The position numbers and the translations under genes are program-made. A stretch of DNA of 64,000 bases from a virus. The notes under the pieces are model-generated. The model was not told the DNA's origin. It did no database searches and saw only the letters and a program-made list of their open reading frames with translations. How positions within the stretch are numbered: position 1 is the first letter of the stretch; the number at the start of each line of letters is the position of its first letter. Positions 5,788-40,078 of the stretch are shown one piece after another. The stretch covers positions 18,194 through 82,193 of IMG/VR virus record IMGVR_UViG_3300046512_000168, one strand, 5' to 3'.

Positions 5788-6552
5788 TTGAAATACACAT
5801 ATTGCCTGTCTGATATTCACGGCATGGTCGATCACCTCGGCCAGGCCATGCGCTGGATCGCCAATGACTGCGCCGAGACCATGACCAGCCTCGAAGATGT
5901 CACGATCGTCTTCATGGGCGACTATATCGATCGCGGCCCCGCGTCACGCGCCGTCCTCGACATGCTGATGCTCATGAGGGACACCAGCCCTCCGACGATC
6001 GTCATTCTGCGCGGCAACCACGACGAGATGATGCTGCAGGCGCTGCGCTACCGATCGAAAACGCACGAGGTATGCTGGCTGCAGAACGGCGGCCTGGAGA
6101 CGCTGAAGAACTACGAAAAGCCGGTCGCGGCCCGTGGCTTCGAACGCAGTCTCTATGACGACGCGGTCTACGCGCATCTCGACTTCATCGAGAGCATGGA
6201 CCTGTTCTACGAGGACGAGCACCGCGTCTATGTTCATGCCGGCGTGCGCGGCTCGTTCCAGCGCATGGGCCTGCAGCAACCCTTTGACCTCTTGTGGATC
6301 AGGCCGAGCGAAATGGACGAAGCCTGGCCGGCCGGTATGCCGGTCGAGCCGAAGCTTGTCGTGCATGGGCACACGCCTGGTCATCCTGGCATCCCCGAAA
6401 AGACCTTCGGTATCGACGGCGGCGCCTGCTTCGACACTGGACATCTGAAGGTGGTCAAGTTTGACGATCAGCATCGCGATCCGATCCATATCCAGGAGAT
6501 CAGACCGATCAAGATGGCAGGCGTCAACGACAACAAGGTAAAGGCAGCATGA
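5788..6552 (+). CDS. Ser/Thr protein phosphatase (calcineurin-like metallophosphoesterase, lambda NinI-like)
   Basis: Motifs DIHG, GDYIDRG, RGNHD, VHAG, HGHTP. Confidence 0.9.
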   Translation: MKYTYCLSDIHGMVDHLGQAMRWIANDCAETMTSLEDVTIVFMGDYIDRGPASRAVLDMLMLMRDTSPPTIVILRGNHDEMMLQALRYRSKTHEVCWLQNGGLETLKNYEKPVAARGFERSLYDDAVYAHLDFIESMDLFYEDEHRVYVHAGVRGSFQRMGLQQPFDLLWIRPSEMDEAWPAGMPVEPKLVVHGHTPGHPGIPEKTFGIDGGACFDTGHLKVVKFDDQHRDPIHIQEIRPIKMAGVNDNKVKAA

Positions 6553-6935
6553 CCGGCATATTCCTTCATGATTTCTCCTGCGAGGAGGACGTCTTCTCGC
6601 AGTTCGAAACAAAGGACGAGGACAGGGAAGGCGTGCGCATCTTATTCGCGACCTACACCTACGAGAACTATTCGGGGAGTGCATTCGTGCTGCTCGAAAA
6701 GGATGGAAAGCTGTTCGAAGTCAATGGATCGCACTGCTCGTGCTACGGTCTCGAAGGTCAGTGGGCACTGGAAGAGGCTGACAAGGACGCGCTCTTGCAC
6801 CGCTTGCGCAAGGGAGACATGGGCGGTGAATACGAGGGCAACTGGTCGCAGGCGCTCATCGATCTGCTCGACCCGCCATCTCCGCCGACGGTAGCAAACC
6901 TCATCGTCGCCAGGAGGAGGGCGATCGATCTATGA
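6549..6935 (+). CDS. hypothetical protein, C-terminal RRAIDL tag
   Basis: Contains GSHCSCYG; ends PPSPPTVANLIVARRRAIDL. Confidence 0.75.
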   Translation: MTGIFLHDFSCEEDVFSQFETKDEDREGVRILFATYTYENYSGSAFVLLEKDGKLFEVNGSHCSCYGLEGQWALEEADKDALLHRLRKGDMGGEYEGNWSQALIDLLDPPSPPTVANLIVARRRAIDL

Positions 6936-8089
6936 CCCCTAAAGTCGAGCTGCTTACGCGAGACGGAGGGCGGGCTTGGCTTCGCATGCCGTCGGCCCAG
7001 CCGTCGCAGGGGATGGTGTCGTCAGAAGCACTCACGCGTGACGACCTCGTGCATCTTTATGCCCAGCTTAGCGCACATCTTCGCGAGACGAGTGGCCAAC
7101 CCACTGTCGCGATCGCCGGCCGCGCCATTCAGCTCGAAGACGCACCTGTAGCCGCCCCGACTTTGCAACCCGTTGCACTATCCACATCTGTCGCAGTGCC
7201 GTCGAACTTTCGCGCCATTGATCGGACCCCTGCCGTAGGAGACTGGTTCCTCATCTTACGCCGCGAAGGCTCGACGTCGGACTGCACAGTCGGCCGTCTC
7301 TACCAGGTCACACGGGTTGACGTCGAGGGCCGCTCAATTCCAGCTATCTCTTTCGTCGACGATGTCGGTGATCGCGTGTCGATGTTCTCTGGACGTGGCG
7401 TTAGCTGGGAGTTAGTCGAGCCGGCGCTGGTCGAGCCGGCGCCCCTGACGTTCAACTGGGACGCCGTAAACGATCTGAGGCCGAGACCAGAGCATTACCC
7501 GCCTCCCGCAGAGACGTTCCCGGTCGAAGGGTCTACTTGGCCGTGGCGCGTCGTCACCGATCGGCCGCCTGTCGTGGGAGACTGGGTGCGCATCACGCAT
7601 GTCCCTGATGAATATAGCGATTTCACTGCCGAGGTTGGCGGCGTCGTGCAGCTAATCGACGTCGACACAGACGAGTGGAGCAGAAACGGGGCATGGGATG
7701 GCAGCCATCACGCAGACGACTACATGGTATGGCATGATGGGGACATGAGCTGTGTCCAGGCCGAGCTGGTCGAGCGCGTTACCAATCCGATCGTCTATCG
7801 CGCCGTGGCTACGACGACAGACACGATGGTCGAGCCTTTGGCGGAGAGCCGCGTTGTCCCCGGAAGCCTGCGCATCAACGAGCTGACACTAGACGGCTAT
7901 GATAGCGTCCCCATGCCGGTGCTTGTGCAGAGCCTTGCCGAAACGATTACAGGCGTCACCCGAGAGACATTCCGCGCGCTCTTCCTGGAGCATGTCGAGG
8001 AACTGAGCCACGCTATAGACGCAGCGGTAACCGAGCTGGATGATGACCAATGGTTAGGCGCCATCCGCAGGATGCGGGAGAGGTCATGA
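6932..8089 (+). CDS. multidomain hypothetical protein (internal GRAIQL; two P-x-VGDW repeats)
   Basis: AGGAGG RBS; repeats RTPAVGDWFLI / RPPVVGDWVRI. Confidence 0.75.
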   Translation: MTPKVELLTRDGGRAWLRMPSAQPSQGMVSSEALTRDDLVHLYAQLSAHLRETSGQPTVAIAGRAIQLEDAPVAAPTLQPVALSTSVAVPSNFRAIDRTPAVGDWFLILRREGSTSDCTVGRLYQVTRVDVEGRSIPAISFVDDVGDRVSMFSGRGVSWELVEPALVEPAPLTFNWDAVNDLRPRPEHYPPPAETFPVEGSTWPWRVVTDRPPVVGDWVRITHVPDEYSDFTAEVGGVVQLIDVDTDEWSRNGAWDGSHHADDYMVWHDGDMSCVQAELVERVTNPIVYRAVATTTDTMVEPLAESRVVPGSLRINELTLDGYDSVPMPVLVQSLAETITGVTRETFRALFLEHVEELSHAIDAAVTELDDDQWLGAIRRMRERS

Positions 8090-8114
8090 ACGGGCAGGGC
8101 GCTAGACATATAAT

Positions 8115-8143
8115 TTGACAAACACTCATACATATGAGATAGT
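8115..8143 (+). promoter_or_regulatory. Early promoter P4
   Basis: TTGACA-N17-GATAGT; spacer holds perfect IR CTCATA-CA-TATGAG. Confidence 0.85.
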
Positions 8144-8166
8144 CAAAGGAGATGAAAGGGCAGGGC

Positions 8167-8400
8167 ATGAGCAGGGCAATCGATTTCACACCGGAAGAGC
8201 ACCACGAGGAAAAAGAGTTCGGCCCTCTGTGGCTCCCGCCGCATACCTGCGACGACTTCAATGACCACGAGTGCGGCATCTGCAGAATGCGCTCCCAGAT
8301 GCGCGCCTATTACGAAAAGTGCCGGCAGGAATATAAGATCGCCTGCGCGGCTGATCGCGGCGAATGGACGCCGCGCGAGACGAGGGCAACGGCATTATGA
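8167..8400 (+). CDS. hypothetical Cys/His protein (N-terminal RAIDF)
   Basis: ORF after P4; HxC...CxxC. Confidence 0.6.
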   Translation: MSRAIDFTPEEHHEEKEFGPLWLPPHTCDDFNDHECGICRMRSQMRAYYEKCRQEYKIACAADRGEWTPRETRATAL

Positions 8401-8894
8401 CACGCGCACTCGAACTGGAAGAATTGCAACGCGTTGCACCATCGGAGGCGCCGCCCGAGCCGATACCTGAATTCACCCATATAAGGCATGACGGCTATAC
8501 GTGGTGCGGCTATGCCAAGGGCAAGTACGGCGACCATGAGCGCGGCCATCTCTACTCAACAGTCACCAACAGGGCCCAGCGCGTCGCTATGTGGCAGAGC
8601 AACCAACTCTACGGAGACGGGTCGCTGACCATCGACTGGGTCGAGAACGGCTGGAAAGTCTGCCCGCACTGCGAACGTGATAAGTGGAGCGAGGAGAACA
8701 AGGACGCCCTGGCTGCGCAGCGCAGGTACGCGGCCGAGGAGATAGCGATCGCCAAGGCCGAGGCCGGCGAATGGACGCCCAAGAAGAAGCGCGCTGTCAT
8801 CCTACGCGAGCATGGTCAGCCAGAGACAGTGCTGCGCGCCAGGCCATTTTCCGACTTCAAGACAACGGAAGAACTGATCGAGGCGTGGAAATGA
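8397..8894 (+). CDS. hypothetical protein
   Basis: ATGA overlap; CPHC motif. Confidence 0.7.
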   Translation: MTRALELEELQRVAPSEAPPEPIPEFTHIRHDGYTWCGYAKGKYGDHERGHLYSTVTNRAQRVAMWQSNQLYGDGSLTIDWVENGWKVCPHCERDKWSEENKDALAAQRRYAAEEIAIAKAEAGEWTPKKKRAVILREHGQPETVLRARPFSDFKTTEELIEAWK

Positions 8895-8925
8895 AAGCTA
8901 CTCCAGGACAACGAGAGCAGTTGCT

Positions 8926-9276
8926 ATGAAGAAAAGCTGCCACATCACCGTGGACTACGAAGGCGGGACTGCCTGCGCCTGGGCGATCGAGCGCACGGCC
9001 AAGGGTGTCGAAGAGCGGATAGAAGAACTGTGCCGGCCCGAGATGCGCGGCAGCCAGCAGATCACCCCGAGAAGAATGCCTACGAAGATAACACTTCACG
9101 TCGACGTGGAAAGCCAAGGCTTCAAGGTATGGGCCGTGGGCACTGACGGCTACGAGAAGGTGGAGGAGCGCGCCCTAGCCCTGCTCGCCGCCACGAGCAG
9201 AGAATTCAACCGTCTGCACGGCATCGAGCCCGCCGTCGACGAGTACGCGATAGAGAAGAGGGCGATCCAGTTATGA
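8926..9276 (+). CDS. hypothetical protein, C-terminal KRAIQL tag
   Basis: ORF track. Confidence 0.7.
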   Translation: MKKSCHITVDYEGGTACAWAIERTAKGVEERIEELCRPEMRGSQQITPRRMPTKITLHVDVESQGFKVWAVGTDGYEKVEERALALLAATSREFNRLHGIEPAVDEYAIEKRAIQL

Positions 9277-9476
9277 GCCAGCCCAATGCGATAAGCTGCG
9301 CAACCTGCGTTTACCGACACACATATACCATCAACTCGGTCTGCCGGCGAAACCCGCCGACGGCGCTCCCAGGCGGCAACGTCTGGCCGAAGGTCGGGGA
9401 GTTGGATTGGTGCGGCGAGTGGCAGCCGAAGAGCGAGCCCATGCCCATCCAGCCGAGGCGATCGCTTAGCCTCTGA
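9273..9476 (+). CDS. small Cys-rich protein (CxxC...CRRNPP...WCGEW)
   Basis: Probable metal-binding miniprotein; ends PRRSLSL. Confidence 0.7.
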   Translation: MSQPNAISCATCVYRHTYTINSVCRRNPPTALPGGNVWPKVGELDWCGEWQPKSEPMPIQPRRSLSL

Positions 9477-9507
9477 AGAAAATACTTGACATCAACTAAT
9501 TTAGGCT

Positions 9508-9536
9508 TTGACAAACACTTAAACATATGTAAAAGT
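9508..9536 (+). promoter_or_regulatory. Early promoter P5
   Basis: TTGACAAACACTTAAACATATGT; box A downstream at 9559. Confidence 0.8.
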
Positions 9537-9581
9537 CAAAAATGAAGGCTACAGGTTTTTGCAACGCGTTGCAGACAGGAG

Positions 9582-10142
9582 ATGGGCATGGCCGAGAATT
9601 TCGACAAGATGTGCGAGGCAGTCATCGATAAGTGCGGGCTCGATGGCGCAATCCCTTGGATCATGATGGCCTCGCTCCTCTACTACCACGCGGACATTTC
9701 CATCCTCACCGATCCATTCTACGACAAGCTTACGCGCGAGCTGCACGGCAACTGGGCCGAGCTGAAACACCCACACAAAGCGCTGATCGACAAGGACGGC
9801 CTGAAAACGGGCAGCCTCTATAACCTGAAGATCGAGAACTATCCGAAGAGCGTGCGCGGCGCGGCCTTCTCTCTCATCACCGGCAAGGGCTTCGGCCTCG
9901 ACGTCAAGAAGCGCGACGCCATCTATTACGCCGACTTCGAGCCACCTGAATATGCCTTCGACACCTATGTCTATGGCGAGCGCAAGGAGACCTGGCGCCA
10001 GTACCAGGCCCGCCTCAATCCGCCGAGCGAGATCGAGCTCGCCGAAGCCGTGATGGCAGCCATCATTCCGCCACCCGAGCCTGAGCCTGTCTTCAATATT
10101 CGCAAGCGCGTCCGGCCGACTAATGAAGGAGTAAGTGCATGA
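9582..10142 (+). CDS. protein with NAD-dependent DNA ligase subdomain Ia-like N-terminus
   Basis: LYYHADISILTDPFYDKLTREL matches the LigA YY-x-D-x-x-ISDxxYDxL pattern; no KxDG adenylation domain; C-terminal IRKRVR. Confidence 0.6.
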   Translation: MGMAENFDKMCEAVIDKCGLDGAIPWIMMASLLYYHADISILTDPFYDKLTRELHGNWAELKHPHKALIDKDGLKTGSLYNLKIENYPKSVRGAAFSLITGKGFGLDVKKRDAIYYADFEPPEYAFDTYVYGERKETWRQYQARLNPPSEIELAEAVMAAIIPPPEPEPVFNIRKRVRPTNEGVSA

Positions 10143-10309
10143 GCGTATTCGCCAAGGACCCCTGGGTTCTGTTCTGGATCGTCCTTGTCATCGTGCTGCT
10201 GATCCGATCCATGTGGAAGAGCAGGGAGCGCACGATCAGGATCAAGGAGCGGGGCTGGCCGCCGAACCATCTCGATGCCAACGGCGACTTCAGGGAAATC
10301 GACGAGTAA
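10139..10309 (+). CDS. small membrane protein
   Basis: MSVFAKDPWVLFWIVLVIVLLIRS... translated by hand; ATGA overlap. Confidence 0.6.
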   Translation: MSVFAKDPWVLFWIVLVIVLLIRSMWKSRERTIRIKERGWPPNHLDANGDFREIDE

Positions 10310-10340
10310 TCCATCCAACCCAGAGAGGGGCAGACGCCAC

Positions 10341-11657: not shown

Positions 11658-11884
11658 CAGAGTGGAACCGAGACATCAGCAGCGCCCCTAGGGTCGGGAA
11701 AATCTGGCTAGCTGTCCAGAACTTCCAAGTCGTCGGCCCGTCCTACTGGGTGGAAAGCCGCCAAGCCTGGGCCGGCCTCGGCAGCAAGGAAGAGCCGATC
11801 GCCTGGTATCCCTACTTCAAGCCGGAGCATCCGGACGCTAAGCCGGTTGAAGAGCCGGCTGTCAGGAAGCGGGTGCGCGCATGA
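11654..11884 (+). CDS. DUF551-like small protein, C-terminal VRKRVRA
   Basis: TEWNRDISSAPR...PIAWYP; AAGGAGG RBS. Confidence 0.65.
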   Translation: MTEWNRDISSAPRVGKIWLAVQNFQVVGPSYWVESRQAWAGLGSKEEPIAWYPYFKPEHPDAKPVEEPAVRKRVRA

Positions 11885-12102: not shown

Positions 12103-12341
12103 GGCTCGGCGATATCGATGTGCGGGACCTCGCCAACAGGCTCATGAAGAAGGGCGACAACGTCGAGGCCAGGCGCAGGCAGAAGCGAGACGCAGACAGC
12201 CTAGCATTCGACGCGTCTGCCGGAATGATGGCATCGTCCTTCGTATTCTGGGGGCTATCGCAGGTGCTGACAGACATGGCCGACGCGCATGACGCCGTGC
12301 CACCAGTCAACGGCCGGGCCTTGGACCTTGCAGATGACTAG
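12099..12341 (+). CDS. hypothetical protein, near-C-terminal GRALDL tag
   Basis: Ends VPPVNGRALDLADD. Confidence 0.65.
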   Translation: MRLGDIDVRDLANRLMKKGDNVEARRRQKRDADSLAFDASAGMMASSFVFWGLSQVLTDMADAHDAVPPVNGRALDLADD

Positions 12342-12558: not shown

Positions 12559-12586
12559 TTTTGCAACGCGTTGCAACGTATATTTG

Positions 12587-12833: not shown

Positions 12834-13453
12834 TGAACCAGCGCGTCCAGCCCCATGTCTTGTCAGTCACCCCGCTGGAGCAGGAGCCCCGGCGGGCGAT
12901 GGACCTCTGCGAAGAGGAGCTGGTGCGGGACGGGCGCGAAAAGCTGCTTGACCTCACCAAGCGCGAGCTGATCCTCATGATCGAGGCGCTGGAGGGGCAG
13001 AACGAACGCTTCAAGCAATACATCGCGCAGTACGAGGCGATCCAGGTCAATGACCGTGAGGAGAAGCACAATCTCCGGACGGCGGGCGTCGCGCTCAAGC
13101 ACAAGATCGAAGAGCTGGAGCGCACCACGGTTGACACGGCAGACGCACGTTTCATTCTCAGGAACCTAATCTATTCGCTGCTGCACACCGTCCATGTTCT
13201 GCCAGAGGGCGAGCGAACGCGGCCGGCAATGCTGGCTATTAGGCGCATCGAGCATCAGGTCTACAAGACGGCCTTCGTGCTGCGGTGGCTCGAAAGCGAT
13301 ATGGACCTTGCCTGCGCCATATGGCAACTCTGCAAGTGGGCCTGCTACCTGCCGCGCGAGACGTCCAATATCTACCGGGCATGGGCGCGCGCCGACGAGG
13401 ACTGCATGCCGACCCTTCTCACCGAGATCATTCTACGGGACACAAAAGTATGA
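12833..13453 (+). CDS. coiled-coil hypothetical protein
   Basis: TGATG coupling; heptad-like segment; N-proximal PRRAMDL. Confidence 0.7.
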   Translation: MNQRVQPHVLSVTPLEQEPRRAMDLCEEELVRDGREKLLDLTKRELILMIEALEGQNERFKQYIAQYEAIQVNDREEKHNLRTAGVALKHKIEELERTTVDTADARFILRNLIYSLLHTVHVLPEGERTRPAMLAIRRIEHQVYKTAFVLRWLESDMDLACAIWQLCKWACYLPRETSNIYRAWARADEDCMPTLLTEIILRDTKV

Positions 13454-14232
13454 CTGACCCGCGCAGCCTTTGGAAACGCCTCAAGGACTTTCTGTTCAAG
13501 GAACCGAACATCATAGCCGGAAGCACGATGCAACGGGTTATCGGAGGCTTGCGCGACGGCGAAGTCGCAGTCCATCTGTCGCGGCCAGACCAGCGTATAA
13601 AGGGCGAGCCCGGTCATCGCATCAAGGACAGCGATTTGCGGCCTTTCGGGACACCTGGGCATTTATACTATGACCCAGCCGCTATGCAGTGGATGGTCTT
13701 CATGCGCGATGGCAGCACGCGTGAGTTCGAATGGGACGATGCCAGCAGCGCCTGGAACTGCGTCGTGGCCGAGCGAGAGGCCATAGATCGCCAGCCTGCG
13801 GTAGCGGCCGAACCAGTCGCGCCAGCCGTCGGCACGGTTTACGCGGTAGCGGGACCTAACAGCTCCGTTGCGTGGGAGCTTGTCAATTCCGACAGGACGG
13901 TCACTCGGTACCAGAACCAGATCGACGCGCTGAATGCGAGGAACCAGCAACGCGTAGCTGACCCAAGGCATAGCCATTCTGTCTTCGACCCAGGGCATAG
14001 CCACGCCATAACCCCTATAATCCACGTAGGCGTCGACGTAGGCACCCGAGACGAGAGCGTCGTTATAGAGAACATGAACACCATGCTCGACGCAGAAATG
14101 CGCCGCTACCTGACGACACGGGCGCGCAACATGGCCGGCAGGCAGGTCGAGACGGTGACCGTGAACGTGCCCGCTCCATCAGAGCCGAACATCCTGGCCG
14201 GTAGGAAGCGCGTGCTCGATCTCGGAGAATAA
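13450..14232 (+). CDS. hypothetical protein with DP[RG]HSH repeat, C-terminal RKRVLDLGE
   Basis: ATGA overlap; DPRHSHSVFDPGHSHA. Confidence 0.7.
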   Translation: MTDPRSLWKRLKDFLFKEPNIIAGSTMQRVIGGLRDGEVAVHLSRPDQRIKGEPGHRIKDSDLRPFGTPGHLYYDPAAMQWMVFMRDGSTREFEWDDASSAWNCVVAEREAIDRQPAVAAEPVAPAVGTVYAVAGPNSSVAWELVNSDRTVTRYQNQIDALNARNQQRVADPRHSHSVFDPGHSHAITPIIHVGVDVGTRDESVVIENMNTMLDAEMRRYLTTRARNMAGRQVETVTVNVPAPSEPNILAGRKRVLDLGE

Positions 14233-14311: not shown

Positions 14312-15673
14312 GTGCTGCGACTGGAAGTGGGCAAATACTACTGGAACAAAGAAGGGCACGTCCGGGGCCCAATATCGCGTGGCGATGACCCGATGTACCC
14401 ATTCGCAGACCCGGCCGGTTACTCCTACACCGGCGACGGGAAATTCGTCATCGGTCTCGACGACGAGGATGACAATCTTGTGGAGGAGGTCACGCATTTC
14501 AGACTCCTCTCGACGAACGGTTTCCTCTATCGAACGGCCGGAGCGATCTACAGGACCGTGAGCCACGGCTTGAGCCCGGACGATCTGCCTGCGGTAAACT
14601 TTCATGGCGAGCAGACTGCGCAGCTCCTGTGGGCCTACCTCACGGATATCGAATGGTGCAAGGCTCCAGCGGAACGCGCCAGGGTAGGCGACACCGTCAT
14701 GTGCACGCAGACCAACGACGTAGGCGCGCTCGTTCTGCAGGGCGAATACACAGTCAAAGAAGCGGTAGCGACACCAGACATGACGCGCGTCCTGGTCGAG
14801 GACTGGCGGGGCTCGCGATGGTGGCTGTTTAACGATGGCCATCCGCACACTCCGCAATACGAGCTCCTGGTAAACCGGCGCCGCCCACCAAACCCGACGT
14901 TGCCGGCATCGGTGGCGATCAAGCGCGGTGACATGGTGCGTGCCCTTTCGACACGGTACGACTTTACGGCAGGTATGCTCTATGAAGTGATACGCTTCAG
15001 CAAGGACGGTCTCAAGGTCCGCGTGCTTAACGACAAGGGCGAAGACGACTGGCTGTACATCGGCGCCGACACGGGGGCGAGCTTCGTCGGCTGCGAGCTG
15101 GCACAGAGTTTAGCAGGGCCACCAACATTCTCGCCGTCCCGCACATACGACGAATACCTGCAGGAAGGCTGCACCTGCCATCATCCTCCACACATTGCTC
15201 CGTGCTCGTCCTGCACCAACAAGCTGTCCGAGGAAGAATGGCTAGCCGAAGAGAAGGCGGAACACGAGGCTGCCGAGCAGAAGAGCACCCGCGAGGCCGA
15301 GCTGCTGAAGGCGTATAAGCACGAAAGGACCGCCGAGCTGCTGCGCGACGTCATGTTCTCGGACGACATGAAAATGGTCAGCCAGACGATTAAGGACAAG
15401 ATCGAGGCCGTCTTCGATCGGCTCATCCACGATCAGGAATTCGAGAAGAAGCGCAAGGACTACGACAATGCGCGCGCCGTCTACACCCAGCACCTCAACC
15501 AGGCGAACACGTTGCAGGAGAAGAAGCGCGAGCTGACGGCCGAGATCGAAATCCTCTCCAATCGCAAGTCTCAGTTCGAGAAGGAGGTCATAGACCTACA
15601 GAACCGCATCCTTATGCTGCGCGATGAGCTGCCGATCGAGACGACGTCCAACGGAAGGAAAATTCAGCTATGA
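14312..15673 (+). CDS. multidomain protein with C-terminal coiled coil and GRKIQL tag
   Basis: GTG start after GGAGAG; CTCH...PCSSC cluster; coiled-coil C-terminus. Confidence 0.75.
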   Translation: MLRLEVGKYYWNKEGHVRGPISRGDDPMYPFADPAGYSYTGDGKFVIGLDDEDDNLVEEVTHFRLLSTNGFLYRTAGAIYRTVSHGLSPDDLPAVNFHGEQTAQLLWAYLTDIEWCKAPAERARVGDTVMCTQTNDVGALVLQGEYTVKEAVATPDMTRVLVEDWRGSRWWLFNDGHPHTPQYELLVNRRRPPNPTLPASVAIKRGDMVRALSTRYDFTAGMLYEVIRFSKDGLKVRVLNDKGEDDWLYIGADTGASFVGCELAQSLAGPPTFSPSRTYDEYLQEGCTCHHPPHIAPCSSCTNKLSEEEWLAEEKAEHEAAEQKSTREAELLKAYKHERTAELLRDVMFSDDMKMVSQTIKDKIEAVFDRLIHDQEFEKKRKDYDNARAVYTQHLNQANTLQEKKRELTAEIEILSNRKSQFEKEVIDLQNRILMLRDELPIETTSNGRKIQL

Positions 15674-18140: not shown

Positions 18141-18538
18141 GCGATTTCTTTTACCGGACGCACCCACAGGCCTCGGTGCGCGCGGCTGCGCTGGCGCGCT
18201 GGACGATCGGCAAGAAGACGATCCAGTCACAGCTACCGGTTAACTTCCCAGGCTACGAAAAGGTTGGTATCGACAGTCTGCAGTACCGCTGCAGCTCATG
18301 CAACGAGCTGCAGGAGGATAGATACTTCGCCGGCGAGGTGACGCTCATGGAGAATGGCGACTTTCGCGTTCTGGCTGTAGGAGCCTGCCCGGACTGCGAG
18401 CAGGGCGCTTGGTGCGCCTGGAAGGTCCGTTACGAAGCCGACACCGGAGAGCTTGTCATGCTCGACGCGCTGAAGGATTATCCCATGCCGGTACGCGAGG
18501 ACGGGACGAGAGTGAGGGCGATCGATGTCGGCGACTGA
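18137..18538 (+). CDS. zinc-binding hypothetical protein, C-terminal RAIDVGD
   Basis: CSSC...CPDC. Confidence 0.7.
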   Translation: MSDFFYRTHPQASVRAAALARWTIGKKTIQSQLPVNFPGYEKVGIDSLQYRCSSCNELQEDRYFAGEVTLMENGDFRVLAVGACPDCEQGAWCAWKVRYEADTGELVMLDALKDYPMPVREDGTRVRAIDVGD

Positions 18539-18995
18539 TGAGCCCGTCTGCATCCGCAACTGGCGCACAAGCTGGGAAGCGCACGAAGCCAAGGTCAAAA
18601 GCCAGAAATCCTGGCGCGTGATCGAGCTCGACTTCATGACGGCAGCGCGCATTGTGTGCCGCTCTGGGTTAGGCATTTCTGCGCAGGCAAGTCCGAGCCA
18701 CTACTGCAACCTCCGTAGCTCGTTCCTGGGCGGGGCTATGGAAGACGAGTGGCATATGGACGGCACACTGCCGACGAGCTTCGAAGTCATGGTGTTTCTG
18801 CCGGAAGGTGTCTCAAATCTGTGGATACACCATGACCTGATACCTGACGGACTCGATCAGCCCGGAGGGTGGGTATCGATCGAGGCTATCGAGGAGACGA
18901 TCCGCCGAAATGGCGGATGGGTGGCCGACCCGGAACCGCCGAAGCCAACCACGTCGAACATCCTGGTGTTAAGGCCGAGAAGGCTCGATCTCTGA
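18525..18995 (+). CDS. hypothetical protein, C-terminal PRRLDL tag
   Basis: ISAQASPSHYC; ends PEPPKPTTSNILVLRPRRLDL. Confidence 0.7.
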   Translation: MSATDEPVCIRNWRTSWEAHEAKVKSQKSWRVIELDFMTAARIVCRSGLGISAQASPSHYCNLRSSFLGGAMEDEWHMDGTLPTSFEVMVFLPEGVSNLWIHHDLIPDGLDQPGGWVSIEAIEETIRRNGGWVADPEPPKPTTSNILVLRPRRLDL

Positions 18996-19372
18996 TGGTT
19001 TCCGATAAGATGTATCGACGCATGTGCATGAGCGGATGGCAGGCCCAGCAGGAACGGCGGAAGATGAACGCGAAGAATTCCTTGGCCGCGCTCGATCGGC
19101 GCACCAAGCTCATGCTGGAGATCGAGCATACGCTCGCCGGCCGGTCCTGGATGCTGCCGGAACCGCTCAAATTTGCCCTGCACCCAGGCAAGAAGGCCGT
19201 CATTCTTCTGTCTGGAAAGCTGACGCCTATCCTGCGGGAATTTGTGGACAATGGGAAAATCTTCGTAGAGGAGGAATTTTTTCCTAGACAGCGAATTCAT
19301 AATATCCTACTTCTGCTCCCACAGCAGATAACTGAGGAGCCCAAAAGGCCGCCTCGGGCAGTCGATCTTTGA
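18995..19372 (+). CDS. hypothetical protein, C-terminal PRAVDL tag
   Basis: TGATG coupling. Confidence 0.65.
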   Translation: MVSDKMYRRMCMSGWQAQQERRKMNAKNSLAALDRRTKLMLEIEHTLAGRSWMLPEPLKFALHPGKKAVILLSGKLTPILREFVDNGKIFVEEEFFPRQRIHNILLLLPQQITEEPKRPPRAVDL

Positions 19373-28964: not shown

Positions 28965-28965
28965 A

Positions 28966-29394: not shown

Positions 29395-29871
29395 ATGCGC
29401 TTCGTTCTCACCGGCCGGTGCACCGTCCAGGGCTCGTTTATCGAGCGGGACGGACTTACCCAGAACCTTTCTGACATCGGCGATCGCGTCGTCGACAGCT
29501 TCAACCAGGGCGCCGACGTCCTGGTAGCCTCCCGCACCGATACGCAGAAAGCCGTGCAGGCCCGTGCGCTCGGCAAGCCAGTCTGGACTTATGATCAGCT
29601 CTTTCGGTACTGGAGCCTGCGCAAGGACGGGCAGGGCGAGATCGCCGCACGCGAGGCCATCAGGGGCTCAGTTCTGCCCCGTGAGCCGGTCGCCGCACGG
29701 GTGCCCGTGACGCCGCAGGGCCGGTACGCGATGACCGCCAGGGAGGCTATCCGCGCCCGCTTAGAGCAGAACGCACGCGAGCTCCGCGCTGCGCAAGAGG
29801 CACCCAAGACGGTTGCGCCGCACCCCAGCGCTCACCCGCTGTCAAACGGCCGGAGGGCCATCGACCTGTGA
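29395..29871 (+). CDS. BRCT-like domain protein, C-terminal RRAIDL tag
   Basis: FVLTG...R...GDRVVDS...DVLVA...KAVQARALGKPVWTYDQL resembles the LigA C-terminal BRCT domain. Confidence 0.65.
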   Translation: MRFVLTGRCTVQGSFIERDGLTQNLSDIGDRVVDSFNQGADVLVASRTDTQKAVQARALGKPVWTYDQLFRYWSLRKDGQGEIAAREAIRGSVLPREPVAARVPVTPQGRYAMTAREAIRARLEQNARELRAAQEAPKTVAPHPSAHPLSNGRRAIDL

Positions 29872-30176
29872 AGACGCGCCTGCAGGTCGAGACGGAGAGG
29901 GACCTTCACTCCGACACGCACGATTTCGTCATCCGTGTGAAGATGCCGCGATCGGCGCTGGAAGCACTGACGTCTTTTGAGCGGCAGATGATCGTGCAGG
30001 TCATCAAGAGCACGCGCAGCACCAATGCAGCCATCCTGGCCTATATCGCGGACTTCATCGCGCGGCTGGACGGGGAGGGTGAGGAGGCACCATATACGGG
30101 AGGCCGCATCCTGGTCGACGAAACGTTGGTCGGGGGCAGGGCTCTCGATCTCGGGGACGAAAAAGAAAAGCTTTGA
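29868..30176 (+). CDS. hypothetical protein, near-C-terminal GRALDL tag
   Basis: GTGA overlap. Confidence 0.65.
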   Translation: MKTRLQVETERDLHSDTHDFVIRVKMPRSALEALTSFERQMIVQVIKSTRSTNAAILAYIADFIARLDGEGEEAPYTGGRILVDETLVGGRALDLGDEKEKL

Positions 30177-34124: not shown

Positions 34125-34125
34125 G

Positions 34126-34392: not shown

Positions 34393-34450
34393 CCTACAAC
34401 TGTTAGTTGTTCCATAACGTATGTTATGCGCTCTTTACGAGCGCACTGAA

Positions 34451-34474
34451 GGGGCCGGGGTGACCGGCTCTTTT
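34451..34474 (+). terminator. Rho-independent terminator
   Basis: GGGCCGG-GGTGA-CCGGCTC-TTTT. Confidence 0.7.
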
Positions 34475-34543
34475 CGAGCTGTTTGGGGAGAAGCCGAACC
34501 ATAGCACGATCGCAGCGGATTGCAACCCGTTGCGTTTTATTAG

Positions 34544-34572
34544 TTGACAAACACTCATACATATGACAGTAT
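34544..34572 (+). promoter_or_regulatory. Early promoter P12
   Basis: TTGACAAACACTCATACATATGA; box A at 34520. Confidence 0.8.
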
Positions 34573-34596
34573 GAAACATAGGAAAAGGAGGCGGGA

Positions 34597-34902
34597 ATGA
34601 ACCTTTACAACGCAGACATACTGATCAAGGCAACGGTCTACGTGAAGGCCGAGAGCGAGGAAGAGGCGCAAGAAAAGGTCCTCAAGCTCAATGGGCTCTG
34701 CCTGGAGCTGTCCGAGGACGAGCACGCCGAGCTGCCGATCACCGGCATGACCTACAACAACCCCGATCTGCCAGACATCAGCCTCTCACCGGCCGTGACG
34801 GTCGGTTACGCGGACCCTATCCAGGTGGTCGAGGAAGATATCGACGCTGACCCGGAGGATCGCACCCTCCCCGGCGACGACAATGAGCCGGAGGACGCTT
34901 GA
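34597..34902 (+). CDS. acidic hypothetical protein
   Basis: AAGGAGG RBS; VYVKAESEEEA. Confidence 0.75.
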   Translation: MNLYNADILIKATVYVKAESEEEAQEKVLKLNGLCLELSEDEHAELPITGMTYNNPDLPDISLSPAVTVGYADPIQVVEEDIDADPEDRTLPGDDNEPEDA

Positions 34903-35171
34903 TGCGCGAATATACCTTTGACCTGACACTGAAAGCAGCCGTCACCGTGAAGGCGGAGAACGCCGACCAGGCGCTGGCGATGGTGCAGACCGTGTTCGAA
35001 TGTGCCGACTGCAACGGCGGTGCCTGGCCGAATGGCGAGCCCGTCTTATTCGAGGCGTCCCTCGATCAGCGGCCAGACATCGGCATGATCGACGGCGAAG
35101 ACGCCAGCATCCAGACCTTACGCGAGTGGGACGAGTTGCGCGAAGAGGAACAAGGCAGGATTGGTGACTGA
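34899..35171 (+). CDS. hypothetical protein
   Basis: VTVKAENADQA, similar to the upstream gene. Confidence 0.7.
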   Translation: MMREYTFDLTLKAAVTVKAENADQALAMVQTVFECADCNGGAWPNGEPVLFEASLDQRPDIGMIDGEDASIQTLREWDELREEEQGRIGD

Positions 35172-35560
35172 TGGACAACCTAATCGTTCGAAAGCGTGTG
35201 CTAATGAACAACGAGAACGTGCCACCTCCGAAACCGGAACAAGACTGGTACATGCGCTGGCCGAACGGATCGGAAGTCTACGCGGCCGGCGGCACGGGGC
35301 AGATCGAGCAGCAGCTCGGATGGGTTATCCGACGCGGAGCCGAGCACCTGGCTTTCCAGCGCACGGGCCCAGGTGAGGACGACATAAAATTCGCCGGCAG
35401 TGCGCCGGATGCGTCCTCGGCTATAGTCAAGCTGGGCGGCAAACTCTGGACTATCGGCTACAAGCCGCCTAGTCCCGCGCCCGCAAAGTCCCCTTCCCAG
35501 ACAGCATCTTCCGAACATCTGCCGGCGATAAGGAAAAGAGTTCGCCAGCCTTCTCAATAG
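35171..35560 (+). CDS. hypothetical protein, C-terminal IRKRVR
   Basis: TGATG coupling. Confidence 0.65.
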   Translation: MDNLIVRKRVLMNNENVPPPKPEQDWYMRWPNGSEVYAAGGTGQIEQQLGWVIRRGAEHLAFQRTGPGEDDIKFAGSAPDASSAIVKLGGKLWTIGYKPPSPAPAKSPSQTASSEHLPAIRKRVRQPSQ

Positions 35561-35849
35561 ACATGCCGTATTCAACGTATGTCTTCATCTTCTGGTACTC
35601 GGACGCGGTCATCAGGGGGCCGATTTCATCTATGAAAGTCTCGGCGATCTTTTCCTTTACCGCGCCCAGATGTTCGTCTGGGTTGTTGAAGCCCATGCGC
35701 TCGAAGGCGCTGCGCAACACCCGGTCAAGCATCATCGGCCGCTTGTATCCCAGAGGCACGATGGTCGAAGATAGCGCGCCAGCGAGGCGCTGCACGAGTC
35801 TCGGTTTTTCGGTCATCACCATACTGTTCATCTTGTTTTCTTCCTTCAA
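35469..35849 (-). CDS. helix-turn-helix protein (only credible minus-strand gene)
   Basis: C-terminal GMSIEKAGELFSLSPADVRKMLSG; fills an otherwise empty + strand gap; true start may be ATG at 35831. Confidence 0.65.
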   Translation of the reverse strand: MKEENKMNSMVMTEKPRLVQRLAGALSSTIVPLGYKRPMMLDRVLRSAFERMGFNNPDEHLGAVKEKIAETFIDEIGPLMTASEYQKMKTYVEYGMSIEKAGELFSLSPADVRKMLSGKGTLRARD

Positions 35850-35960
35850 TACAGTCCGATTTACTGTTCGTCCACTCTAAAGCGCCCACGGTTAACAGTT
35901 TGATAACGCTAGATTTTACAGATGTAGGGGACAATTCCAGTGCAACGCGTTGCAGTATAT

Positions 35961-35989
35961 TTGACAAACACTTTAATATATGGGATAGT
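35961..35989 (+). promoter_or_regulatory. Early promoter P13
   Basis: TTGACA-N17-GATAGT; box A at 35940. Confidence 0.85.
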
Positions 35990-36013
35990 GATCTTATCAA
36001 AGGAGGGCTACAT

Positions 36014-36220
36014 ATGCTAAGCATCACTAGCAGGGCAACCAAGAGAGACGTGCTTCTCGAAATAGATAAGGATTACAGTCGTCGCGGCTGCAGCTACGTG
36101 GTCTTCGCCAACGGCATTCCCGTCGACGGCGCGGCCACGATCATCAAGGCCAAGCGCGCCGCTAATGCTTTCGTCGGGGAACACGTGTTCGATCTCAAAG
36201 AGGCCCGCGTCCACGCATAA
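36014..36220 (+). CDS. hypothetical protein
   Basis: AAGGAGG RBS. Confidence 0.7.
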   Translation: MLSITSRATKRDVLLEIDKDYSRRGCSYVVFANGIPVDGAATIIKAKRAANAFVGEHVFDLKEARVHA

Positions 36221-36255
36221 AATTGAAACCCGTTGCAACAGAAAGGTAACAACCA

Positions 36256-36729
36256 ATGACCACCATCTCCCCTGCCCCGCCCAGCAAATGGGCACTCTTT
36301 CGCCACTCGGTGGTCGCGGGGTTCAGGCGCGCCTCGGCCTGGCTCTGGCGGGGCTTTAAAGATTTGTGGGAATTTTTCGCACCCTACGCGCTAGTCCTCG
36401 GCGCCATTCTTCTTTTCGCCCTGCTCTCGCATCTCGACGATCCGGAGCTGAAGACGCCGCTCAGCATCGTCCGCGTTGTCGTCATAATGACCGGGCTCTG
36501 GGGTGTGGACCTGGCCGCCAAGCGGGCGCAGGCAAAAGCCAATGCCAATTACGCCGATAAGCTCTTCGACTTCGTCATCGAAGATCGGGACGCCTCGATC
36601 AGCGTGGTCACCACCACGTCGCCGGAACTGCTGGCGCTCAAGGACGCCATCCCTGGCTTTCTGGCAGGCCACGCAGCGCTGCAGAAGGAAGTCATAGAGC
36701 TGCGGGCGAAGGTCAAAGCAGATGAGTAA
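36256..36729 (+). CDS. membrane protein
   Basis: Two TM segments. Confidence 0.7.
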   Translation: MTTISPAPPSKWALFRHSVVAGFRRASAWLWRGFKDLWEFFAPYALVLGAILLFALLSHLDDPELKTPLSIVRVVVIMTGLWGVDLAAKRAQAKANANYADKLFDFVIEDRDASISVVTTTSPELLALKDAIPGFLAGHAALQKEVIELRAKVKADE

Positions 36730-37051
36730 CGAGCGCGCTATCCAGATCGAGGAGCGGCGCGTAGAGGCCCTGGCCGCTAAATACGCCCCGCCCAAATCCC
36801 CCGAATACGAAACGTCGACGCCTCGCCTGAAGAAGTTCGGTGGCGACATGCTGAATATCTCCTACCCGGAGATGGTGCAGCTCTCCGAAACGCTTGCGTT
36901 TCATCTGCACGCCGTTGCCGGTGTCACCGTCGGCCCCCACGACCTGGCCTCGGCCTTCTTCAAGACCGTCGAGACTATGAACTCCCTTCCAACTGAGAAG
37001 CCTGCCGAGAACACCTCTTCGGACAGGCGTAGCAAAGGAAATACCTGGTGA
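36722..37051 (+). CDS. hypothetical protein (N-terminal ERAIQI)
   Basis: ORF track. Confidence 0.7.
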   Translation: MSNERAIQIEERRVEALAAKYAPPKSPEYETSTPRLKKFGGDMLNISYPEMVQLSETLAFHLHAVAGVTVGPHDLASAFFKTVETMNSLPTEKPAENTSSDRRSKGNTW

Positions 37052-37956
37052 CTATTGAACTCGTAACCAAGCCCTGGGTGGGCGTCCTGGCGCAGCCGCA
37101 GCTCAATCTCGGCGTGATGGAGGCTTTCGCGGAAGAGCACGGCCTCGAAGAATTCGCCGGTGACTTCGGCGACCGCCCTGACACGCCGATCGGCCGCATC
37201 TTTCAGGCGCTCGAACGCGACGACGAAGCTTCGCACGCCGACCTCTTAACGGAATTCTCCGGCCGCTTCTGCTACCGCGCTTGGGACAAGGGCCGCTCAA
37301 CCGGCGAATACCTGAAGAACATCATCAGCGAGCGCCACGGAAGCGTACTTGCCCACTCGAACGTCTCCTTCATCATCACCGGCGTCTCGCGTTCCCTCAC
37401 CCACGAGCTGGTCCGCCACCACGTCGGTACCAACCCGTCGCAGGAAAGCCAGCGCTACGTCACGGCCGAGGGTGGCGAGATCGAGATCGTCGGCTTCAAG
37501 GCCAATCGCGCCGTGGTACCACCGCTGATCATGAAGATGGCGGAGAACCCAGAGCTGATGACGCCTCGCGGCGAGAGCGTTGTCCTCACAGACTTCCTGG
37601 CGCACTACGAGAACGCGCTGGACAGTTATCAGATTTGGCTTGACCGGCTGAAGGGCTCGATGTCTGCGCGCTTCGAAGACAACAAGACAATCGTCAAGAA
37701 GCGAGCCCAGGAAGCCGCCCGCTGCTTCCTTCCGAATGCGTCCGAGACGCGACTTGTGTGGACGATGAACCTGCGCGCCGCACGCAACGTCATCGAGCAG
37801 CGCGGCAATCCAGGGGCCGATCTCGAAATTCGGCGCCTGGCCGTCGCGTTCACCCCGGAATTGAAACGCGTTGCACCGGAGACGTTCTTCGATTGCGAAG
37901 TCTACACCGCCGCCGACGGCTTCGAGGCCGTGCGGGTGGAATACTCGAAGGTCTAA
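37048..37956 (+). CDS. thyX: FAD-dependent thymidylate synthase
   Basis: GRFCY, HGSVLAH, VSRSLTHELVRHH, SQESQRY, EAARCFLPN, EIRRLA. Confidence 0.92.
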   Translation: MTIELVTKPWVGVLAQPQLNLGVMEAFAEEHGLEEFAGDFGDRPDTPIGRIFQALERDDEASHADLLTEFSGRFCYRAWDKGRSTGEYLKNIISERHGSVLAHSNVSFIITGVSRSLTHELVRHHVGTNPSQESQRYVTAEGGEIEIVGFKANRAVVPPLIMKMAENPELMTPRGESVVLTDFLAHYENALDSYQIWLDRLKGSMSARFEDNKTIVKKRAQEAARCFLPNASETRLVWTMNLRAARNVIEQRGNPGADLEIRRLAVAFTPELKRVAPETFFDCEVYTAADGFEAVRVEYSKV

Positions 37957-37960
37957 GACG

Positions 37961-38239
37961 ATGCAGCTTGGCGACAACACGAATTTTACATCGTTCTATG
38001 ATACGGCACAGAATTTCGTGAAGTTGGCGCAGTGTGGCGACGTGATGACGGGCACAGTCCTCTATCACCAAGGCCACGCAGTCGCCCGCATCGTCGACGA
38101 TCGGCACATGCAGATCACGACGCGGAAGGACCTGCCGGCAGCAACGCATGGTCTGGCTGGCGTCGTCGGGCACGTCGCCAAGCGCAGCGGTATGCTTTTG
38201 ATAAACAAAGACTTAAAGGAGCAAGCGACGCACATCTAA
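37961..38239 (+). CDS. hypothetical protein
   Basis: Tight packing after thyX. Confidence 0.6.
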   Translation: MQLGDNTNFTSFYDTAQNFVKLAQCGDVMTGTVLYHQGHAVARIVDDRHMQITTRKDLPAATHGLAGVVGHVAKRSGMLLINKDLKEQATHI

Positions 38240-38270
38240 GACGCAAATTCTTGGTGCAACGCGTTGCAGG

Positions 38271-38315
38271 AAAACCTCGGCCGGGCCCATCCACCCCTGC
38301 CGGGGTTTTCTTTTT
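38271..38315 (+). terminator. Rho-independent terminator
   Basis: AAAACCTCGGC...GCCGGGGTTTT followed by CTTTTT. Confidence 0.7.
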
Positions 38316-38549
38316 GTGCACCGCACATTTTTTCTTAAAATCGCTGGAACCAAATTTATCGGCGTGCGTTTATAGCCCGTTATGCCTGCACTTGAGGGAC
38401 GCACTGATCCAAAATAGCTAGGTAAAACATAGTTGTAGACTCAACAGGTCTAAGTTATATTCACCGCGTCCACTTTTGCGCGTAGCATGCGAGTGGCAGG
38501 CATTCGGACAGTCCCATTGGGAGGGCTGCTCCCGGAAGAAGGGGTTTAA

Positions 38550-39011
38550 ATGCTAATGATCAAGTACCATCGTCAGCCCGCAAAGGGCGATGAGAATGAC
38601 TTGCAGACCATCCTGAAAGACCCGGAGACGAAGGACTACCAGGACCTGCGCGACCGCGCAGCCTATGTCTACATCACCGGCACATTTCCGACGCATCTCC
38701 GCTCGTACATGATGAGCCTGCTGCGCATAGGGACTGCGTACAGTTTGAAACCCGTTGCACTGGATGGCAGATCGGGTTCCATGGAGCTGACGCCTGAAGT
38801 GCGGAAGGCCCTCGACCTCGAAGATCACCCGATGGTTTCGCGCACGCGCGACTTCGTCAACGAAGGATACAAGATTTTCTTTCAGCGCGACGTAAACGAG
38901 CGCCGACCATACTCCAAGGTCCTGCTTTACAAGAAGGACGGCGGGGTCATGCACAAGCTCGTCGTCCAGGCCGACGGCTCCATACTCGAAGGCTGGCCAA
39001 CTCGTTCGTAA
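38550..39011 (+). CDS. hypothetical protein
   Basis: 153 aa ORF. Confidence 0.7.
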   Translation: MLMIKYHRQPAKGDENDLQTILKDPETKDYQDLRDRAAYVYITGTFPTHLRSYMMSLLRIGTAYSLKPVALDGRSGSMELTPEVRKALDLEDHPMVSRTRDFVNEGYKIFFQRDVNERRPYSKVLLYKKDGGVMHKLVVQADGSILEGWPTRS

Positions 39012-39017
39012 TATTAT

Positions 39018-39046
39018 TTGACAAACACTTACACTTGTGGCACTGT
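39018..39046 (+). promoter_or_regulatory. Early promoter P14
   Basis: TTGACAAACACTTACACTTGTGG. Confidence 0.75.
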
Positions 39047-39077
39047 ATAAGTATAACAAACCACAGGTGTCAGAACC

Positions 39078-39467
39078 ATGTCAAATTCGGTCGTAACGAC
39101 CAAGATAGGGGTGCGGACAGACGCACCCCATATTCCCGCACGCGGCTCGAAGGCGTATAAGCTACTCTCGCATCTTCTGAGGGGAGTCGAGATCGATGCC
39201 GGGTACGCTTACCTGGAGCTCAATCTTCCGACCTTACAGGCCAGAGCATCCGAATTGCGCAAACTCGGCTGGCCTGTGCGTGCACTCGAACGCCCCCATC
39301 CCAGGTTGATTAACGAAAAGACTGTGTACTATCTTCTCGATGCAACTTTTCGCCAATGGATTGCGGAAAATTCTGATAAGCATCCGAACGAGTACCCAGG
39401 GCTAGAGGGTCGAGGCAAGTACATTCCGCAGCGTGACGAAGGCACCGGAAATGGGGGTGGGCCTTGA
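39078..39467 (+). CDS. winged HTH protein
   Basis: AYLELNLPTLQARASELRKLGWPV. Confidence 0.65.
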   Translation: MSNSVVTTKIGVRTDAPHIPARGSKAYKLLSHLLRGVEIDAGYAYLELNLPTLQARASELRKLGWPVRALERPHPRLINEKTVYYLLDATFRQWIAENSDKHPNEYPGLEGRGKYIPQRDEGTGNGGGP

Positions 39468-40078
39468 TTGAGTGGATAGCAAGCATAGTACCAAATACAC
39501 CACAAACGAGATGGGCATTGGACGAGTTCATTACCTTGACTGCATTATTCGCCAGCGCCGCATTCGGTATATGGTACATTGTTCGAGCGATAGAGCGGCA
39601 CACGCGCCGCATCATGACCGCCAATATTGAAAATCCGAGCAGACCATTTACTGTATCATTTTCGCCCGATGCCCCCGGTCTGCAGGACGCTTACCGCGTC
39701 GACGCCTGGGTCCGTTGCACCCCGCTTGAGGCACTATTTTTCAACCCCTCCTCTAAGAGGTGGCAGGGTTACCGGCAGATCGCCGGTCTCGGCTCTGCCT
39801 TCGTCAACGGCGCCCTGGTCACATTCCGAGCAGTACCGACCGGCGTGTCGGAAGACTTCCTGGCCGAACTGACCGAGGCCGCCGAGGATGGCTTAATCCC
39901 TCCCGATCTCCTCTCTCGCCTGGCAGACATGGACCCTAATGAGGTCTTCTCTCTTGTCGAGGCGATGGGCCTTGTCCGACAATTCAACACTGCACTTGAG
40001 GCGGCTGCCCAGCCAGAGACTCCGGAGCCGATACTGTCGGCCTTCCGCATCCAGCGTCGCGCCATCGATCTCGACTGA
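39464..40078 (+). CDS. membrane-anchored protein, C-terminal RRAIDLD tag
   Basis: One TM helix; ends PETPEPILSAFRIQRRAIDLD. Confidence 0.7.
   Translation: MIEWIASIVPNTPQTRWALDEFITLTALFASAAFGIWYIVRAIERHTRRIMTANIENPSRPFTVSFSPDAPGLQDAYRVDAWVRCTPLEALFFNPSSKRWQGYRQIAGLGSAFVNGALVTFRAVPTGVSEDFLAELTEAAEDGLIPPDLLSRLADMDPNEVFSLVEAMGLVRQFNTALEAAAQPETPEPILSAFRIQRRAIDLD

Follow-up and report, generated by a model that had tools for sequence, protein, structure and literature searches.

Short linear motifs, through which one hub serves many partners, are central in eukaryotic regulation, whereas few are known from phages. In phage T4, a shared terminal peptide, placed at the N- or the C-terminus of functionally unrelated proteins (gp43, gp33 and gp55), binds the gp45 sliding clamp, as QL[SD]LF does in bacteria; the acidic tails of phage T7 are another case. 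In protein phosphatase 1 (PP1), the RVxF motif occurs in most of the more than 200 partners, with a basic flank before it and an acidic one after, and anchors in a hydrophobic groove; a RINL variant has also been reported to bind (PMC3795061). Small heat-shock proteins (sHSPs) carry, on a flexible extension of the terminus, an IXI anchor, [RK]-x-I-x-[IVL], after which G-D or polar residues often come. The present analysis concerns a terminal peptide tag, R-[A/K]-[I/L]-[D/Q]-L, that recurs on unrelated proteins encoded in a 64,000-nt window (bases 18194-82193) of the 82,193-bp IMG/VR viral contig IMGVR_UViG_3300046512_000168. That one hub reads a shared terminal motif is an established principle (T4 clamp tails, T7 acidic tails, clamp-binding motifs, PP1 RVxF); new here is this tag sequence. 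The literature searched held no description of it, in keeping with a first-pass annotation of the window, which did not recognise it as a described phage system, and nothing relevant on phage short linear motifs or on sHSP IXI motifs in connection with phages.

Coordinates prefixed w are positions in the window. Our own gene call on the whole 82-kb contig, which has a GC content of about 60% and an estimated completeness of 77% (CheckV), gave 139 genes, all on the + strand. The pattern [RK][ARKS][ILV][DQES][LIVF] was counted in these proteins, with the last 15 residues as the C-terminal zone, and evaluated by Fisher's test. It occupies 12 of 1529 C-terminal, 3 of 1529 N-terminal and 8 of 21698 internal positions (C-terminal versus internal, p = 5e-10). 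Depending on stringency, the C-terminal enrichment over interiors is 20- to 37-fold, with p from 5e-8 to 5e-10, and the N-terminal enrichment is modest. The same test on a close complete relative, the 109,431-bp circular NZ_CP071625.1, gave 19 C-terminal, 5 N-terminal and 15 internal copies (p = 7e-15). In an unbiased scan for triplets of a reduced alphabet, spaced i, i+2 and i+4, all four tag-bearing phages had basic-x-hydrophobic-x-hydrophobic among their two strongest C-terminal signals. With both termini counted, about 21 of the contig's roughly 140 proteins are tagged, that is, around one in seven (~15%).

The tag is a short linear motif, R-[A/K]-[I/L]-[D/Q]-L, mostly with R, K or G before it and, after it, either the C-terminus or a few acidic residues. 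Among 36 C-terminal tags, the first residue is R without exception (36/36); the second is A in 26, K in 5, V in 2, S in 2 and R in 1; the third is I in 20 and L in 15; the fourth is D in 19 and Q in 11; and the last is L in 31. The residue before the tag is R in 11, K in 8 and G in 10. The stop codon follows directly in 21 tags, and 1-7 mostly acidic residues intervene in the other 15, with extensions such as D, GD, GE, ADD and GDEKEKL; N-terminal copies are likewise followed by runs of D and E. The structural module carries no tag at all (0 of 24 genes, against 18 of 115 elsewhere; p = 0.04). The first-pass annotation had proposed a shared terminal tag on at least 12 unrelated proteins, none of them structural, and the counts bear out both statements, the former far above chance. 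The copies in the window are given below together with the phosphatase gene that precedes their densest cluster; endings are written up to the last residue before the stop codon.

5788..6552, + strand: PPP-family (lambda-phosphatase-like) metallophosphatase, a candidate reader only, directly upstream of the densest tag cluster
6918..6932, + strand: C-terminal tag RAIDL of gene w6549-6935 (128 aa, ending RRAIDL; body of the phrog_21421/8792 family)
7121..7135, + strand: internal linker copy GRAIQLED in gene w6986-8089, kept in the relative
8173..8187, + strand: N-terminal tag MSRAIDF of gene w8167-8400
8403..8417, + strand: N-terminal tag MTRALEL of gene w8397-8894
9259..9273, + strand: C-terminal tag RAIQL of gene w8926-9276, ending KRAIQL
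9459..9473, + strand: C-terminal tag RSLSL of gene w9273-9476, the weakest variant, with the same ending in the relative
12315..12329, + strand: C-terminal tag RALDL, then ADD, of gene w12099-12341
12890..12907, + strand: near-N-terminal copy PRRAMDL, then acidic residues, in gene w12833-13453
14209..14223, + strand: C-terminal tag RVLDL, then GE, after NILAGRK, of gene w13450-14232
15656..15670, + strand: C-terminal tag RKIQL of gene w14312-15673 (453 aa), identical in an orthologue of 49% identity
18123..18137, + strand: C-terminal tag RAIQL of gene w17493-18140
18515..18529, + strand: C-terminal tag RAIDV, then GD, of gene w18137-18538
18978..18992, + strand: C-terminal tag RRLDL, after SNILVLRP, of gene w18525-18995
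19355..19369, + strand: C-terminal tag RAVDL of a gene that probably spans w18995-19372
29854..29868, + strand: C-terminal tag RAIDL of the BRCT-like protein w29395-29871, whose homologues, down to 41% identity, all retain R, I, D and L
30138..30152, + strand: C-terminal tag RALDL, then GDEKEKL, of gene w29868-30176
36734..36748, + strand: N-terminal tag MSNERAIQI of gene w36722-37051
40058..40072, + strand: C-terminal tag RAIDL, then D, of gene w39518-40078, directly upstream of the portal gene; counterparts RRLIDLSD (L338C) and KRAMML (the 4-kb contig L002)

All 13 C-termini of the first-pass annotation are present exactly as it wrote them, and its N-terminal copies, the near-N-terminal PRRAMDL and the internal GRAIQL were likewise found in the sequence. 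One correction concerns the gene ending at w19372, whose start is most likely w18995 and not w18869. Upstream of the window, the same contig holds four more copies, including the endings TKRAIAL and RRKIDLD and the N-terminal MTRAIQI.

Several copies overlap AGG-rich Shine-Dalgarno sequences and ATGA junctions, and the DNA word GCGATCG is mildly over-represented, so that the recurrence might in principle reflect nucleic acid and not protein: a ribosome-binding site (RBS), ATGA coupling, a regulatory word in DNA or RNA at gene boundaries, or base composition. The evidence runs strongly the other way. The tag occurs in 10% of ATGA/GTGA-coupled genes and in 11% of the others (p = 1.0), and the strict motif is found 14 times in the coding frame of the contig and 22 times in that of NZ_CP071625.1, against 0-1 times in shifted frames of the same genes. 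The enrichment of GCGATCG is only mild, and its occurrences are scattered. Base composition is not the cause, because three Rhizobium phages of the same GC content (RHEph10, V1VFA-S and RHph_TM16) show a terminal enrichment of only 0.6- to 1.6-fold. In 12 orthologous carrier pairs, identity amounts to 92% over the five tag residues, 62% over the ten residues preceding them and 55% over the bodies; 25 tag codons differ, of which 20 changed synonymously, leaving the peptide intact, while 5 are conservative swaps within the motif definition. The tag is thus maintained by purifying selection on its amino-acid sequence. Frame, coupling, codon and same-GC comparisons together rule out the RBS or coupling, DNA-word and composition explanations, and an artefact of this kind is hardly credible any longer. 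Two points of the first-pass annotation, that selection acts on the peptide and that an RBS artefact is disfavoured, are thereby strengthened.

The carriers show how the tag is attached. The body of w6549-6935 belongs to a widespread family of which, among 120 homologues, a single member has the tail, namely the 99%-identical copy; the check suggested at first pass, to see whether homologues lack the tail, accordingly gave 119 tail-less members. In w29395-29871, homologues down to 41% identity conserve the N-terminal domain, vary extremely in a middle part rich in insertions and deletions, and retain the end PHP-x4-5-L-SNGRR-x-IDL, in which the position of the alanine is free (A, F or M). The AlphaFold model of this protein gives a pLDDT of about 90 for residues 1-90 and of 50-59 for residues 91-158, and the leading Foldseek matches of the folded part are all BRCT domains, though the E-values are modest. 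The majority of the other carriers could not be assigned to a family. The earlier description of unrelated bodies, one of them BRCT-like, fits these results: w29395-29871 is BRCT-like by fold, and w6549-6935 falls in a separate widespread family. The tag sits on flexible ends, as seen in the low pLDDT of the w29395-29871 model and in its anatomy of domain, linker and motif. Furthermore, tails are gained or lost between close orthologues: PhoH and the w17137 orthologue end in PARAIQV and RPRALQL, respectively, in NZ_CP071625.1 only. The tag is therefore a module that about 20 accessory proteins, unrelated in other respects, bear at their free ends by way of disordered, fast-evolving linkers, and these gains and losses show how the network grows, a shift of a start or stop codon adding or removing a tag.

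The phylogenetic range is narrow. The Rhizobium phages L338C and RHph_I4 use a dialect, R-x-V-x-L-(D-D), at both termini (core plus acidic residue or end; p = 1e-9 and p = 6e-12, respectively). Examples are MKRHVRLDD, MRYVRLDDD, RRKINLD, RRHVNLDD and RRAVKL, together with MRPRNVQLDD on the polymerase of RHph_I4. In every tag-bearing lineage the gene upstream of the portal is tagged, its forms being RRAIDLD, RRLIDLSD, RRRVDLDD and, on the 4-kb contig, KRAMML. Tag enrichment is absent from the portal-clade members Agrobacterium JP1, Rhodobacter RcTiptonus, Aeromonas HJ05, Pseudomonas SM1 and Rhizobium RHph_TM16, and from the unrelated rhizobiophages RHEph10 and V1VFA-S. Because other Rhizobium phages and other portal-clade members show no enrichment, the tag is a trait of one Rhizobium siphovirus lineage and not of infecting Rhizobium, with two dialects in two sister lineages.

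These features suggest, with a probability of roughly two in three, that the tag docks the accessory proteins onto one shared reader. The invariant residues lie at i, i+2 and i+4, so that R, I/L/V and L would fall on one face of an extended strand, which points to beta-strand docking in a groove of such a reader. By strand addition into this groove, the peptide could assemble a set of accessory proteins on one place or enzyme. The absence of the tag from three Rhizobium phage lineages argues against a reader that any Rhizobium phage could exploit, and favours a lineage-specific, possibly phage-encoded one. A lineage-specific phage protein other than the phosphatase discussed below is a conceivable reader, if still a doubtful one. 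One protein considered for this role, w38556-39011, has 151 aa and is unusually well conserved, with 89% identity to its counterpart in the relative and 53% to that in L338C, and belongs to an uncharacterised family of 99 representative clusters. Its model is confident (pLDDT 94), but Foldseek and VIA-align list no convincing solved match (best Z 3.2) and nothing marks it as a peptide binder, so it was set aside.

A tentative candidate that the first-pass annotation did not contain is the phage's own PPP-family phosphatase, which might use the tag as PP1 uses its RVxF partners; on balance this is unlikely. The protein encoded by w5788-6552 carries the PPP motifs DIHG, GDYIDRG and GNHD, and the solved structures closest to it are those of RLPH2, the Pnkp phosphatase domain, BSU1, PP2A, lambda phosphatase, PP1 and calcineurin. 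PPP enzymes are the textbook example of a single catalytic subunit that binds many unrelated partners by way of a short strand motif. Immediately downstream of the w5788-6552 gene, six copies in 3 kb make up the densest run of tagged genes. By HMM search, a PPP-type enzyme is present in 4 of 4 tag-bearing phages and in 0 of 7 tag-less ones; the PF00149 matches in RHEph10 and V1VFA-S are SbcD/Mre11-type nucleases. As with PP1 RVxF and calcineurin PxIxIT, the tag is a short, putatively strand-forming peptide in disordered regions of many unrelated proteins; as with RVxF, a basic residue is followed by two hydrophobic ones two apart, with a basic flank on the N-terminal side and an acidic one on the C-terminal side; and every tag-bearing phage encodes a PPP-family catalytic subunit, its gene adjoining the tag cluster. 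Set against the RVxF pattern [RK]-x(0,1)-[VI]-x-[FW], the portion R-x-[I/L/V]-x fits, whereas at the final position 31 of 36 tags have L, F being confined to MSRAIDF and MSRLLDF. Unlike RVxF, moreover, the tag is almost exclusively terminal, and other phages with NinI-like phosphatases show no such tags. If this candidate were right, a lambda-type PPP phosphatase would dock some twenty interchangeable accessory proteins as targeting or regulatory subunits, or as substrates, in a PP1-like holoenzyme redirected during host takeover. Lambda-type phosphatases are not known to have a docking groove.

Several considerations weigh against a shared reader or against the phosphatase in that role. Every reader named here is a candidate only. 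The tail may have an intrinsic role without any common reader, such as solubility, self-association or nucleic-acid contact. The final L of the tag corresponds neither to the F/W of RVxF nor to the I/V of sHSP anchors. Relatedness among the four tag-bearing phages reduces the co-occurrence with the phosphatase to one or two events, and about ten other genes have the same phyletic pattern. Finally, in CcrRogue and phiM12, two unrelated phages with phosphatase homologues of 28-30% identity, tag enrichment is only 0.8-fold and 0.4-fold.

Among possible host readers, the groove of a small heat-shock protein is improbable, yet the likeness is close. The tag would then copy the host's C-terminal IXI anchor and insert in the alpha-crystallin beta4/beta8 groove, so that accessory proteins of marginal stability might be held on the sHSP oligomers of the host, or these oligomers might be perturbed. 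In nine Rhizobium genomes, each of the 33 distinct sHSPs has an anchor of the form [RK]-x-I-x-[IV] (for instance KPRKIAIGD, KPRKIAIGDG, KPRQIEIG and the ending VKRIAIRS), and the register, the basic residue at -2 and the trailing G-D match the phage forms RKIDLGD, RAIDVGD, RALDLGDE and PRAIQL; both kinds of peptide also sit in flexible tails. The first-pass annotation had raised this analogy, including a phage-encoded sHSP-like hub. The register part holds for 33/33 anchors, but the hub does not, as neither the contig nor the complete relative NZ_CP071625.1 has a PF00011 match and the phage thus encodes no alpha-crystallin domain. Three other Rhizobium phage lineages and Agrobacterium JP1 lack the tag, though their hosts share the same sHSPs. 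At positions with I/V, K/R and A/E/S/T in the anchors, the tag favours L, A and D/Q, and the final L of 31/36 tags is never seen in the host anchors examined; the carriers of the tag have unrelated bodies in place of an alpha-crystallin domain; the tag is also N-terminal; and it is confined to one phage lineage. The literature searched offers no precedent. Modelled as a complex, a Rhizobium sHSP alpha-crystallin domain and the RRAIDL tail scored 0.02, which counts neither for nor against binding. Comparably improbable is a degron, by which the tag would mark early proteins for timed removal through a protease or unfoldase, be it a host protease (ClpXP, Lon or FtsH), an adaptor or the classic-clade AAA ATPase of the relative. 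ClpX recognises signals of the MuA RRKKAI class, and the tag's basic cluster followed by A-I recalls them; the terminal bias is strong and falls on non-structural, presumably early proteins. In the part of NZ_CP071625.1 that is missing from the contig, L003 28253-31576 encodes a PF00004 AAA ATPase, an unannotated 220-aa ORF (L003 30083-30745), DUF1257 and DUF2997, and the 220-aa ORF, directly after the ATPase, ends in the tag RRRALDL. DUF1257 is otherwise a cyanobacterial and plastid family (a control search matched only in Synechococcus). This AAA module, however, is also found in tag-less members of the clade, and a degron signal is expected at the extreme terminus, whereas 15 of 36 C-terminal tags are followed by 1-7 residues and one conserved copy is internal. 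Occurrence at both protein ends, before an extension of 1-7 acidic residues and once within a linker is more easily reconciled with a docking groove than with engagement of a free end.

A variant beta sliding clamp motif recruiting phage proteins to host DnaN is very unlikely. Clamp motifs do occur at either terminus, on functionally unrelated proteins that meet at one hub, as in T4, and the phage tag is likewise terminal on several unrelated proteins; moreover, Rhizobium Pol IV paralogues end in PQLDLGV and PQLRLAL, whose cores L-D-L-G and L-R-L resemble the two phage dialects. Against this, the defining Q is found at 0 of 36 equivalent positions, the invariant R of the tag has no counterpart in clamp motifs, and the final F/L is absent, no hydrophobic residue following the tag's L. 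Canonical clamp-type motifs are not enriched at termini, and where this phage family does have a clamp-type ending, its form is canonical: the dNMP kinase of L338C (L006 37892-38566) and its RHph_I4 homologue end in EQLSLL (the close relative's orthologue ends in EQLRPT). The phage encodes no clamp, the polymerase and helicases of the close relative are untagged, and unlike the replication enzymes of T4, the carriers are mostly small proteins without known function. Less probable still is mimicry of a host SDHAF4-like (DUF1674) C-terminus plugging the active site of the succinate dehydrogenase flavoprotein. The terminal D-F-COOH of SDHAF4 occupies the dicarboxylate site of SDHA (PMC10784507), and the host protein of this type, one per genome, ends in INGRAIDF in 5 of 5 Rhizobium genomes examined, close to the phage forms NGRRAIDL, NGRALDL and MSRAIDF. 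That mechanism needs D-F at the extreme C-terminus, however, and a third of the tags have Q-L, several are extended and several are N-terminal. About one such host ending is expected by chance, and the likeness is probably a coincidence. The INGRAIDF protein is the only recurrent host protein with a tag-like ending: RAI[DEQH][LF] before a stop occurs 2-4 times per 7-Mb genome in host proteomes, equal to the reversed-pattern control, so that no native host client set names a host reader. The first-pass suggestion of a capsid-loading receptor is without support because no structural gene is tagged; in addition, T4-type capsid targeting uses an N-terminal signal on head-packaged proteins, and the present tag is mostly C-terminal. 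Docking onto one shared reader remains the preferred interpretation, with a lineage-specific reader favoured by the phyletic distribution.

The source of the contig can be narrowed through its portal and its relative. The portal (w40194-41969) places the phage among siphoviruses of alphaproteobacteria and some gammaproteobacteria, its nearest relatives being the Rhizobium phages RHph_I4, L338C and P11VFA, at about 47% identity. NZ_CP071625.1, "plasmid p7" of Rhizobium bangladeshense PLR8-1a, is closer: it is syntenic with the contig, with a median protein identity of 75%, and holds about 27 kb missing from it, comprising lysis genes, the AAA ATPase with DUF1257 and DUF2997, DnaB, a DNA polymerase, helicases and ribonucleotide reductase. 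Since this close complete relative comes from a Rhizobium, the host is almost certainly a Rhizobium as well. Deposited as a non-mobilizable plasmid, NZ_CP071625.1 represents an entire circular phage genome, including the capsid, tail, lysis and replication modules, and belongs either to a phage-plasmid or to a phage that is carried or pseudolysogenic. A near-identity DNA search among phages found no match; scans of viral contigs with two carriers, a polymerase-sized ORF and alignment A1 found none either, and the portal matched only the 4-kb contig L002. Metagenome scans gave no matches, nor did a search of species genomes with the capsid protein. The window also holds a 1034-aa ORF (w23526-26630) with good coding statistics, no Pfam match and no homologue in NZ_CP071625.1, which has a different ORF, of 1205 aa, at the equivalent position.

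Other terminal signals occur in these phages. A second motif, [IV]-R-[KTQ]-R-[VT]-R (basic-x-basic-x-basic), shares the top rank among C-terminal signals with the main tag. Its sites are the N-terminus of the portal (w40194-40230, MADEPNIRKRTR) and w5430-5456, 10092-10142, 11860-11884, 35171-35206 and 35520-35560. Unlike the main tag, it spans the portal clade, in phages of Rhizobium, Aeromonas, Agrobacterium and Pseudomonas. The portal bears it in the members inspected (this phage, its relative, L002, L338C, RHph_I4 and HJ05), at the N-terminus in this phage and at the C-terminus in L338C and RHph_I4; RecA and SSB of RHph_I4 have it as well. Some tails combine both motifs (NILAGRKRVLDLGE). 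Furthermore, a protein of L338C (L007 3316-4116) and of RHph_I4 (73465-74532) ends in MDDNIPF, a classical SSB-type acidic tail, which brings the number of different terminal peptide signals in these phages to at least three.

For the biology of this Rhizobium phage lineage, naming the reader would give functional context to about twenty ORFans at once, and would supply a transferable tag with which proteins could be directed to a defined partner in Rhizobium. If the reader proved to be the phage phosphatase, docking-motif logic of the PP1 type would exist in viruses of bacteria.

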